Source: Curvularia clavata (taxonomy: Eukaryota). Taken from it: 64,000 bases of DNA. Shown here piece by piece: positions 49,159 through 52,679 of this stretch (position 1 is its first letter; the number at the start of each line of letters is the position of its first letter). The notes beneath the pieces are model-generated. The model ran no database searches, was not told the origin of the DNA, and saw only the letters and a list, made by a program, of their open reading frames with translations. The DNA is taken from positions 1,798,001 to 1,862,000 of the forward strand of contig CP089281.1 in NCBI GenBank assembly GCA_023920165.1. Direction: 5' to 3'. Position numbers and translations under genes: made by a program.

Positions 49159-52100
49159 ATGGCCCAGCAAGTCTAGTACGAATCTCTAAATCACCTTCAG
49201 ATCTTGCATCTCATTCCATATACTATCGAGAGGGTAACCTAGATAGGTGGAGAATTGATGTGTTTACTGCACATGACCTTTTCCAGTGTCGTGTGTGCTC
49301 CTTCCTCGCAGTCGTGCCTTCCATCTTGGAGAAGTGAGGCACGTGTCTCATTCATGAAAACTCAACAGTTCGAGCTCACGCCTCATGTTTCTTCAGCGAA
49401 CATGCGGTCGTGAGTCTGTCGATATCCTGCTTCGCGATGTGACTGACATTGACAAAAACAGCTTCTCATGCACAGTGGCGCCTGGCGCCAACATCTTCAC
49501 CATCATGCCCGATTCCGGGCTCACTCCTTGGCCTGCCGAGGGTGACTTCGGTATGTGACCCATCCTGACTCCCATCGGACCTTTATTTTCTCCTACCACG
49601 TGCATTCATGCGCAATGTGAATCTAGCTATGTTTGGACCCAAACTAACATTGATTCATATCTGCTACTACTCTTTCATATTTTGATGCTCTACCATGGTA
49701 CCGTAGCATTTTACTAACACGTTCATAGAAGCCATAGAAGAAGAAGAAGAAGAAGAAGAAGAAGAAGAAGAAGAAGAAGAAGAAGAAGAAGAAGAGGAAG
49801 ACCAAGAAGTCGCTGCGGCGCCTCCCGCCCCAAGGAGGGCGCGACAGACTGGCGGTCCGCCACCAAAGCGACCGGTAAGCAATGAGTCCTATACGTTATC
49901 CACAGCACAGTCACCCAAATCTTTCCACACTCCAATTGTCATTGTGCAAGATACAAAAGCAAGAAAGAAGAAGCAACACTACGGTTATCTAAGATGTACT
50001 CTCAACTACCTCTACATCTGCTCAAGCTAAACCTCAGCACCTGATAAAAACCATCTTCACAATCTTCCCAATACCATTTTCAACATCTATACACTGTCAC
50101 AAGACTTGTATAATATGAAATCTTTTCATTTAGCATGGATTGGTTGCTTTCTTAGCATTGGAACGCTCTGATGGCATTGTTGACTTTAACGTAGCGCAAA
50201 CGTTTCGTTGTTTTTGAAGACGACGATGAAGAAGAAGAAGACGAAGAAGAAGACGAAGAAGAAGAAGACGATGACGACGACGACGACGAAGATGATGATG
50301 ACGATAACGATGACGATGACGACGATGATGAAGACGACGAAGATGAAGATGAAGACGAGGAGGAAGAAGCGGCCGTCGCCGCCACTTCCGCTCCGCCGTC
50401 GCCGTCGCCGCCGCCTACGCGCCCCAAGAGGCGTACCCAGCAGGGTGCTGGGACGCCAGCAAAAAGGGTGAGTGATATAAGCATACCCTTCGTTCTAGCG
50501 TTCTCTATCACTCCTAGCAGTATCTGGTAGTCGATAGTGGTGATTTCTACTTCTGAACCTTCACTAACGTAGTTCACAAGCGAGTCGGCACCCCAAGCGA
50601 GTCGGCAGCTCCCCACTGGCGCGTTGACGTCGAGACGTTATCACAGTCTTTTATCACAGTCAATAAACTATTGCGATATACCAAATTAATTATCAGAATC
50701 GCCACTATCGCTTGCACTATCTATATCAACTGCACAGGTACGAGCGTTGTGTCCAGTCTGCTTGCAACGCCCGCACCGCCTCTGTCCTCGCACCCTCTTC
50801 GACGCACTCTCACCGTCACCACGACTGCTACCCGCCTGTTCAGCTAATACTTCTTGTACCTCGCCTACAGTAAGAGTCTCTTCTGACCGTACGTATCGCC
50901 GCTTGCGGCTCTTACGCTTATTTGATTCGTCAAGAGCCTCTTGAAGAGTAGTTATTTTCTCTGTCAGAAGTACCATCTTATGTGCCATTTGCTGAGCCCC
51001 CTTACTCAACTGCGCAATCTGCTCAGTAAGTGAGTTGGCAGAGGACCCACGGCGCCTTCTCACGCTCTGTTGAATAAGACCAATTTGAGCCTCGACTTCG
51101 CGCGCGTTGCGTGGTGTCTGCGCCTTCTAGGCGGCTACCCGTCGCGGTGATTGATATGGTGTCTGCACCACCACATCAAGCTTTGATAGCACAGCCTGTG
51201 GTTCATGTGGGACTAGACCAGCGCCTCTAAAGCCAGCTTGGATATTCTCCTTCGTAATAGACTGCTCAAAAGCAGCCTTAAAGGCTGGCAGAAAGGTCTC
51301 CTTGCTAATATAGTTGGTACGGTTACGTGCCAAGCCCGAAATAGCGTCGCTATACTTGCGCTTCAACGGCGAGAAGCAGGCGACATCAAGAGGCTGTAGT
51401 AGGTGAGACGAGTGTGCAGGCATGCAGAGAAGGATAATGTTCTTCTCCTTGCAAAGATCTTGAAAATCGATAGAGCAGTGGCTCTCGTGGCCGTCGATAA
51501 TAAGCAGTCGATACCCACCCACAGTATGCCTCTTTGTATGGGTGTCAAAGTGCTCTAACCAGGCAAGAGCAAGTTGATTATTCGTCCAGCCATTAGGACT
51601 AACTTCAAGAACCTAGTCGGCCGGCAAATTTTCAAACCAGACGTTAATAAGCACCTTGCCCGCAAAGACAACGAAGGGTGGTATCCGGCGACCCGACGCG
51701 CCCACGCCTTGGATCGCAGTAACCCACTCACGGTTGCCTGGCTGTATCCGCTTCTTTTTGCCATATCTCTCTGAGCCTGTGATAACTAACTGTGATGAAA
51801 TCTTGCCCATTATAAAGCCAGTCTCGTCAAAGTTGTAGATATCATCGTCCACGATACTCTACTTCTGCTTTATCGTCTGAACCAAGTCAAACCAGCGCTG
51901 GATAGCCACTGGGTCCTCGCAGGCGGCTCGCTGGTGATCATAGGGACGGCTCCAGCGCGTACGGAGCTCAGGAGTTCGCTTAACAAAGTTATCAACCCAG
52001 TTCTTGCCAGTAGGGTTGCTCTCCCGCTCATGCAACAGTTTATCAGCCATTGCTCGAACGTCAGCCTTTATAGGCGCAAATCCTCGCGTAGATTCTTCAA

Positions 52101-52679
52101 GAATACGCTCAACTATAGCCTCCTCTTCTAGCTTGTTTAGACGCTTCGAATTTGGCTCGCAGTCGCGTCGGGAGGGCTTTCCAGCGCGTCGGTCTTGTAC
52201 TGTTGTTCGAGGAACGTTATAGATCTCAGCAGCACGCTTAACACTTTGAACACGGCAAGAATTAATTTCAAAGATAGCTAATTGAATATCGGCTTCAGAA
52301 GTAACTTGTTGGATTTGATGTGGTTGAGACATAACGCGTTATAGTGTCGACGTTGACGCGCCGGTGGGGAGCTGCCGACTCGCTTGGGGTGCCGACTCGC
52401 TTGTGAACTACGTTATATCTATTAGGCATTCTTTCGATTGTTTCAGCTACCGTGTAATGGGATGAAGATAAATTTGGAGACTTGCTGACATTGTTATAGC
52501 GAAAGAAATTTGTTGTCCTCGAGGACGACGACGACGACAAAGAAGAAGCCCCCGTCGCCGCTGCCGCTGCCGCTGCCGCCGCCCGCTCGCCCCCTCGGGG
52601 CAAAGAGAATGAGCCGCGGCCACGCCGCCAGGCCGCCGAGAAGGCCAACAAGATTTTTAAAAGCTATGGATTATATTAG
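49159..52679 (+). CDS. Multi-exon acidic low-complexity protein (~254 aa), absent from the ORF track
   Basis: In-phase exons 49159-49175, 49287-49333, 49397-49409, 49462-49550, 49729-49874, 50195-50467 and 52500-52679, all with GT-AG introns. The first two exons are less certain; an alternative ATG is at 49402. Confidence 0.65.
49737..49793 (+). repeat. (GAA)19 trinucleotide microsatellite (poly-Glu in the acidic gene model)
   Basis: Pure run of 19 GAA. A mixed GAA/GAC/GAT tract follows at ~50216-50368. Confidence 0.95.
50567..52413 (-). mobile_element. Complete Tc1/mariner (Fot1/pogo family) DNA transposon, 1847 bp
   Basis: 50-bp perfect terminal inverted repeats (ACGTAGTTCACAAGCGAGTCGGCACCCC..., 50567-50616 and 52364-52413), extending to ~70 bp with 4 mismatches. 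TA target duplication at 50565-50566 and 52414-52415. Confidence 0.97.
50686..52332 (-). pseudogene. pogo-type DDE transposase with three in-frame premature stops
   Basis: One 549-codon frame: HTH (YNVPRTTV), CENP-B HTH, YNFDETGF, LIIDGHESH, QPLDV and a CCHC knuckle (CGRCKQTGHNARTC). TAG stops at 51859, 51613 and 51127. Confidence 0.93.

Follow-up and report, generated by a model that had tools for sequence, protein, structure and literature searches.

In this study, we describe a predicted spliced gene for a small, very acidic protein on the + strand of a 64-kb stretch of Curvularia clavata DNA (64,000 nt of contig CP089281.1, hereafter the window, to which all positions refer); its last exon ends at position 52679. 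Judged from the sequence, the analysis shows a putative protein-coding gene with four supported introns, and modelling shows a predicted product of 214 to 279 residues, depending on the ATG used, with an isoelectric point (pI) of about 4 and largely without predicted fold. With rather more confidence than doubt, we favour the reading that this is a real spliced gene, that its product is a small, very acidic and disordered protein, predicted to be a nuclear polyacidic binder, and that a decayed transposon lies in its last intron. A spliced + strand gene had been proposed here in a preliminary description of the locus, and the proposal is backed by splice signals, by a codon-level signature of selection between the duplicated exon starts and by a protein homologous to the last exon; the latter two indicate independently of each other that the + frame is translated. 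In plainer terms, the locus is probably an ordinary, unannotated and lineage-restricted acidic-protein gene.

When 49462-49550, 49729-49874, 50195-50467 and 52500-52679 are spliced together, they form one 688-nt open frame that is closed by the TAG at 52677-52679. The four introns had been proposed to be in phase with canonical ends, and this is what we find, the joined frames being open and the donors and acceptors being those listed in Table 1; each of the four also holds a branch-like CTRAY site 15-27 nt before its 3' end. Strong donors (GTRAGT, GTATGT or GTAAGC) occur four times on the + strand of the host region (1,672 nt), all of them as predicted donors, and not at all on its - strand; from the window-wide density (61 per 64 kb), about 1.6 would be expected for a region of this size. 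The combination CTRAY-N(4-35)-YAG is likewise found exactly four times on the + strand of the host region, each time at the end of one intron. A local example of genuine splice signals is available for comparison in the Sec2-like gene at 30710-33817, whose inferred intron, from 32216 to 32260 or 32263 (45 or 48 nt; GTAAGT..ACTGAC..CAG), holds an in-frame stop, with the Pfam domain Sec2p resuming beyond it.

Exons 4 and 5 both open directly after an in-frame TAG, the AG of which is the acceptor, and since they also contain no methionine, they are expressible only via splicing. The internal exon 4 spans 273 nt with phase 0 on both sides, as had been noted before. Its translation begins with RKRFVVFEDDD and runs through an interrupted Asp/Glu tract and an Ala/Pro/Ser linker to a basic end (...PKRR..PAKR); that of exon 5 begins with RKKFVVLEDDDDD and runs through poly-Ala and SPPRGKENE, which contains KEN, to a basic C-terminal segment ending in ..YGLY. 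The junction peptides PPPKRP/RKRFVVFEDDD and GTPAKR/RKKFVVLEDDD are present exactly as proposed in the spliced sequence, and the acidic tracts are indeed microsatellites, namely (GAA)19 without any interruption at 49737-49793 and, at 50216-50305, an interrupted GAN run of 30 codons, made up of 13 GAA, 11 GAC and 6 GAT.

Table 1. Features of the acidic gene and of the transposon in its last intron (window coordinates).
Feature	Coordinates	Strand	Details
Pyrimidine-rich tract	49118..49155	+	31/38 C/T; just 5' of the candidate transcript
Possible first coding exon or 5' leader	49243..49409	+	56 codons open; in phase with exon 2 across intron 1
Intron 1	49410..49461	+	52 nt; GTGAGT..CTGAC..CAG
Exon 2	49462..49550	+	89 nt; ATG 49505 (MPDSGL...); ends in phase 1
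Intron 2	49551..49728	+	178 nt; GTATGT..CTAAC..TAG
Exon 3 / module 1	49729..49874	+	poly-Glu, Ala/Pro linker, basic end ...PPPKRP
Intron 3	49875..50194	+	320 nt; GTAAGC..CTGAT..TAG; phase 0
Exon 4 / module 2	50195..50467	+	273 nt, 91 codons; Met absent
Intron 4	50468..52499	+	2,032 nt; GTGAGT..CTGAC..TAG; phase 0
Pogo/Fot1-type DNA transposon (Tc1/mariner superfamily)	50567..52413	-	1,847 bp; within intron 4
Transposase frame	50686..52332	-	Met at 52332 to TAA 50688-50686; single frame
Exon 5 / module 3	52500..52679	+	59 codons + TAG; Met absent

Over their first 11 codons, exons 4 and 5 have diverged at 11 of 33 nucleotides, eight of which are third positions, and the encoded residues differ only twice, each time by a conservative exchange (R/K and F/L). 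When 11 substitutions were placed at random in 20,000 simulations, an outcome of at most two residue changes and no stop had P=5e-5. When the duplicated starts were compared in all six frames, the + frame was the best conserved, with 2/12 differences, the others ranging from 4/11 to 8/12. In a six-frame translation of the whole 64 kb, the pattern [FILV]VV[FLIVM][DE]3 occurs at two sites only, and these are the starts of exons 4 and 5. The duplicated exon start RK[RK]FVV[FL]EDDD, which had been recognized in the preliminary description, thus survives closer inspection, and the codon comparison shows an FVV-acidic motif that has been kept by protein-level selection after exon duplication. The wider claim that three exons share one module holds for their layout, which is alike; it does not hold for the sequences of modules 1 and 2, the tails of which give z=1.8, a score reached by 127 of 2000 shuffles. 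Among the modules, duplication is demonstrated only for exons 4 and 5. A MAFFT DNA alignment of the three modules was dominated by repeats and was uninformative.

A HMMER scan with the 59-residue last exon against 1.84 billion representative proteins gave two matches at E<=0.001. One of them, P0002, is a 58-aa hypothetical protein that matches the last exon from end to end with 53% identity (E=1.6e-6). Its alignment score lies at z=18.8 and was reached by 0 of 2,000 composition-preserving shuffles, and the non-acidic tail of the last exon, compared with P0002, gives z=11.3. The elements that both have in common are VV.EDDDDD, SPP.GKENE, R.RR.AA.K and a terminal K.YG.Y, and P0002 looks like the same exon, probably called as an independent open frame in a different organism. 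The second match, P0001 (a 2,154-aa bacterial-type repeat protein, matched in 10 stretches), extends over ..FDDDADHEE..AVAA.. units and was discounted as compositional.

Other databases were also searched. The last exon found no usable match in the ESM Atlas and two weak compositional matches in a PDB sequence search (mL80, E=0.0024; IRF7, E=0.24). The only family returned by a Pfam scan of the three module exons taken singly was Nop14, over the acidic run and at 15.4 bits against a cut-off of 34.9, and membership was rejected for a match that is compositional and so far under its cut-off. Rfam, searched at E<=1 over 48500-53500, gave three sub-threshold matches at 50246-50409 and 52518-52586, all on repeat tracts (mir-598 with 29.3 and 21 bits against 69; sR52 with 20.2 against 50), and we take them as low-complexity artefacts. 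Since they are confined to repeat tracts, an intronic small nucleolar RNA is not indicated.

The 214-residue model has a predicted pI of about 4.05 and contains 88 Asp/Glu (about 41%), 27 Lys/Arg and 50 Ala/Pro. A disordered nuclear protein that binds histones or mimics DNA had been proposed, and the structure predictions agree as to the disorder: AlphaFold2 gave no secondary structure for exon 4 (predicted template modelling score 0.17) and, for the last exon, one C-terminal helix of modest confidence (residues 40-55; mean predicted local distance difference test score 59.5). The preliminary description further held that nuclear localization signals (NLS) exist only in the spliced mRNA. This is correct for the strict pattern K[KR]x[KR], since KRPR and KRRK, the only two matches that the spliced model contains, fall on junctions, and incorrect for the looser RPKR, PKRR and RPRR, which lie inside exons. 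Because the introns fall inside basic clusters, an NLS made by splicing is a by-product; nothing pointed to a regulatory meaning, and no mechanism need be sought in it. Better put, each junction completes a bipartite-type pattern ([KR]2-x10-12-[KR]3), in which a basic cluster follows a basic pair after a linker of 10-12 residues, and this pattern has three matches at the two sites. Both the bipartite 10-12 linker and KRRK-type major-site clusters are described in a published account (PMC2878527); the minor-site NLS classes given there were compared by eye and fit neither junction. Pattern matches of this kind are necessary and far from sufficient for import, and nuclear localization is accordingly given here as a prediction.

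The KEN tripeptide in the GKENE block is identical in P0002; as a three-residue motif with one relative, a possible KEN-box degron is only a lead, and no destruction-box (D-box) pattern was found in the spliced model. Two other docking motifs were considered and dropped. For the RVxF motif of protein phosphatase 1, only RFVVF of exon 4 fits the consensus, by eye, and the idea was abandoned because exon 5 and P0002 do not fit. The PCNA-binding motifs APIM (AlkB homologue 2 PCNA-interacting motif) and PIP (PCNA-interacting peptide) were likewise compared by eye with their consensuses and dropped.

Several points weigh against the reading that we favour. Its functional part builds on composition and on short patterns that are common by chance in many proteins, and no functional lead came from Pfam, PDB, Rfam or the ESM Atlas. 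P0002 is the sole relative from the database searches, the literature on the family not having been searched: 0 of 44 candidates scored in a word search of the last exon against longer proteins, 0 of 8000 reached E<=0.001 when exon 4 was compared with longer proteins, and a profile of the last exon plus P0002, run against proteins of similar length, returned P0002 alone again (one of two candidates). The kinship of module 1 with module 2 is no more than composition explains (2,000 shuffles), and several in-frame ATGs remain candidates for the start codon. The strict pattern of a SUMO-interacting motif (SIM), hXhh or hhXh with h = I, V or L, has no match in the spliced model. Finally, when the empty site is reconstructed, the - strand is open for 220 codons over exon 5, the host intron and exon 4, and this - frame has its third codon positions in common with the + frame.

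The open - frame and its shared third positions belong to what is the most serious formal rival, namely that the coding strand is the minus strand, with a single-exon Ser-rich frame from 52663 to 50155 that was cut by the transposon and of which the + exons are an antisense shadow. Third-position bias alone is insufficient to exclude such a frame, because wobble positions are common to both. The antisense of GAN repeats holds no stop codons, so that the openness of the - frame is mostly automatic; by estimate, the chance that the remaining 61 or so non-repeat codons are all open is (61/64)^61, or about 0.05. Between the duplicates, moreover, the - frame differs at 4/11 residues (including F/R and N/K), compared with 2/12, both conservative, in the + frame. 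The - strand has none of the strong donors against four on the + strand, its frame has no start context, module 1 lies outside it, and it leaves unexplained why P0002, which corresponds to the + frame, has the same C-terminal residues. We therefore consider coding by the - strand to be very unlikely.

Weaker still than the - strand explanation, and in our opinion hardly credible, is the proposal that there is no gene at all, and that the locus is microsatellite-rich intergenic DNA in which GAN/GCN repeats are open by chance and some GT-AG pair is always available to join the open frames. Such repeats are indeed open in many frames, no annotated protein was found, and the Nop14 match in Pfam is compositional and sub-threshold. 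On the other side stand the signature of synonymous substitution (P=5e-5), the end-to-end homology of the non-repetitive tail with P0002 (z=11.3), and the fact that the frame boundaries fall exactly on the only strong donors and acceptors.

In the preliminary description, 50468-52499 was treated as a plain intron, and the degenerate transposon that makes up 1,847 of its 2,032 nt was overlooked. The element is flanked by a TA target duplication (50565-50566 and 52414-52415) and has 70-nt inverted repeats (50567-50636 and 52344-52413) that match at 66/70 positions, three of the four mismatches being transitions. With the TA included, the 72-nt arms at 50565-50636 and 52344-52415 are 94% complementary, and each arm carries one 14-nt direct repeat twice. 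Three in-frame TAG codons (starting at 51861, 51615 and 51129) interrupt the transposase frame, and an intact (autonomous) frame was not found in this copy. Its translation matches the Pfam families DDE_1 (86.5 bits, cut-off 22, E=2.1e-24) and HTH_psq (22.1 bits, cut-off 20.4, E=1.2e-4), with HTH_Tnp_Tc5 just under the cut-off of 22.2 at 22.1 bits (E=1.6e-4).

The inverted repeats, the TA duplication and the transposase with helix-turn-helix (HTH) and DDE_1 domains place the element in the pogo/Fot1 branch of the Tc1/mariner group. Fot1/Pot2-like pogo elements have the same TA duplication, inverted repeats and a single transposase with an N-terminal CENP-B/Tc5-type HTH and DDE_1, and Pot2 carries short direct repeats within its inverted repeats, as does the element in intron 4; in contrast to them, the copy described here is decayed, with three TAG and 4/70 repeat mismatches. 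A published account (PMC7325037) describes a TA target site and HTH plus CENP-B-like domains for pogo elements and a mainly fungal Fot1 subfamily. No second copy of the transposon was found within the 64-kb window. The TpA/ApT ratio of the transposon is 1.12, compared with 0.70 for the window, and this excess may reflect mild repeat-induced point mutation.

Without the transposon, intron 4 has 183 nt (host parts 50468-50566 + 52416-52499), a length comparable to those of its neighbours. The + strand of the element, antisense to the transposase, contains two overlapping strong donor hexamers (51026-51035) and six branch-plus-acceptor patterns (50844-52298). The left transposon junction at 50562-50572 creates CACTAACGTAG, with a branch-like CTAAC and an AG only 4 nt on. 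If CACTAACGTAG served as acceptor after exon 4, 38 element-derived codons and then a stop would follow, and retention of intron 4 would add 20 extra residues before a stop. Given the donors, the branch-plus-acceptor patterns and CACTAACGTAG, impaired or aberrant splicing of the last intron is plausible, and signals in the transposon could give rise to competing splicing in this 2-kb intron.

Short introns are the rule in fungi, and intron 4, at 2,032 nt, is about 11 times as long as it would be without the element, the other introns measuring 52-320 nt. This length, the two strong donors and six branch-plus-acceptor patterns that the element brings, the CACTAACGTAG created at the left junction and the early stop of a retained intron are all in keeping with a gene that is real and yet effectively dead or crippled, its transposon-lengthened intron being retained or mis-spliced and the conserved last exon lost. 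We regard such a fate as unlikely, though not negligibly so: the last exon has kept an open frame along with the residues that it has in common with P0002, the authentic donor, branch site and acceptor of intron 4 are intact, and the element gathered three stops and four repeat mismatches while the exon did not decay.

At the 5' end, the preliminary description had joined seven exons over 765 nt, and this part of the model has to be given up. Read from ATG 49159, the frame reaches a stop after five codons. The 77 nt required for three extra 5' exons can be obtained along only three GT-AG paths, all of them with a first exon of 12-17 nt, and their donors (GTCTAG, GTACGA, GTGCTC, GTCGTG) are weak except for GTGAGG, the second donor of the third path. 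The possible first coding exon or 5' leader at 49243-49409 contains in-frame ATGs at 49258, 49273, 49354 and 49402; the ATG at 49505 in exon 2 is the minimal start, and an ATG at 49385 would be usable if intron 1 stays unspliced. For three of the candidate ATGs the predicted protein has 214, 231 or 279 residues. CT-rich tracts precede start sites in filamentous fungi, and the tract at 49118-49155 is a possible core-promoter element.

The proximity of an upstream frame of 464 codons (47683-49077) suggests another explanation, in which the acidic exons are the spliced 3' end of that frame and there is no separate gene. Only about 180-430 nt separate the two, and the GT at 49066, just before the stop of the upstream frame, could be spliced in phase to the AG at 49241-49242, which leads on to the frame at 49243-49409. 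The donor would be GTACCC, whose position 5 is not G, no CTRAY lies at a suitable distance from the acceptor, and the CT-rich tract sits between the upstream frame and the acidic gene, as would be expected ahead of a separate start site. This explanation is also weaker than coding by the - strand, and we hold it to be the least probable of those considered here.

The window is of filamentous-fungus type by its large open frames, which include cutinase, DNA photolyase, Sec2p, alkaline phosphatase, Arb2, UBX and F-box domains. Two frames adjoin the acidic gene, neither of them assigned to a family. The 464-codon frame at 47683-49077 (+) has no Pfam match, and its best score in the ESM Atlas is only 0.76; the 794-codon frame at 44435-46819 (-), whose C-terminus is acidic, matches only GIY-YIG and does so below threshold (18.7 bits, cut-off 22.6). 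A 391-codon open frame at 55478-56653 (+), for which Pfam gave no match, consists of about six tandem copies of a unit of about 45 residues (..DPSGPHDS.LANKADPRVDSDR.G..GNVGSAAHGT..).

Under the favoured reading of a spliced gene for a nuclear polyacidic binder, the protein can be read as three segments, each with an acidic tract, an Ala-Pro linker and a basic cluster, and segments 2 and 3 are separate phase-0 exons derived from exon duplication. The last intron once measured about 183 nt, the pogo/Fot1 element having inserted later and then decayed, as its three stops and diverged repeats show. The two basic clusters at the junctions may act as importin-alpha-type import signals, and the polyacidic tracts might, once in the nucleus, bind basic proteins such as histones and ribosomal proteins in the manner of acidic chaperones, with the FVV-plus-acidic element putatively providing a short beta strand for docking. 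Splicing of the 2-kb intron, laden as it is with the transposon, would probably be less efficient, resulting in less full-length product or in truncated forms.

The same gene could have a different working part, if the FVV-acidic element is a SIM and the protein a bivalent nuclear SUMO-binding scaffold instead of a binder of histones and other basic proteins. FVVF, FVVL and the IVV of P0002 precede 5 to about 50 acidic residues, the flanks of the two FVV cores being EDDDEEEE... and EDDDDD, and the FVV motif is the part of the duplicated exons that selection has kept. In a published account (PMC8616421), a SIM is a short aliphatic core that forms a beta strand and is flanked by negative charge, and some known SIMs are off-consensus. 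The strict hXhh/hhXh pattern, which has no match in the spliced model, occurs once in P0002, at LKIV and out of register with the acidic run, and FVVF and FVVL meet it only if Phe is allowed. On these grounds we consider a SUMO-binding scaffold quite unlikely. A still bolder proposal, and one that we offer as a long shot, is an undescribed, lineage-restricted family of fungal nuclear polyacidic proteins, made by duplicating a phase-0 exon composed of import cluster, FVV strand and polyacidic run; the FVV-acidic element would then be a non-canonical SUMO or histone dock, and motif number would be tuned by exon 4 skipping, GAA length and the intron transposon.

If the spliced model is true, the fungal gene catalogue would gain one more small, probably unannotated and fast-evolving acidic protein, which has no bearing on any long-standing open question. 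It would also be a clean case of two ordinary processes, the duplication of a symmetric phase-0 exon and the insertion of a DNA transposon into an intron with the exons spared. The locus holds a warning, as a gene of this kind would be overlooked or cut short by prediction programs set up for the short introns of fungi, and the transposon provides a natural test of how a fungus handles a 2-kb intron.

Among known systems, the tail of nucleoplasmin, the N-terminal region of nucleolin, Nopp140/Srp40 and prothymosin alpha likewise combine Asp/Glu tracts in alternation with basic clusters, and the lack of a predicted fold is a further likeness. Unlike the acidic chaperones, the predicted protein has no folded core, and the scan of its three module exons gave no Pfam family match at E<=0.01. 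Its acidic tracts contain no Ser and are therefore not of the phospho-serine type found in Nopp140/Srp40. To our knowledge, the FVV-acidic motif and the ..GKENE.. C-terminal block have no known counterpart in acidic chaperones. The SIMs of PML (VVVI followed by Ser and acidic residues) and of the Daxx C-terminus differ from the FVV element in that its core holds Phe and misses hXhh/hhXh with I, V or L; like SIMs as described in PMC8616421, it has three to four hydrophobic residues followed directly by a negative patch, and it occurs twice in the protein. The likeness to nucleoplasmin extends to the bipartite arrangement, a basic pair and a basic cluster separated by a 10-12 linker (a linker type described in PMC2878527), a pattern that is matched in the predicted protein.

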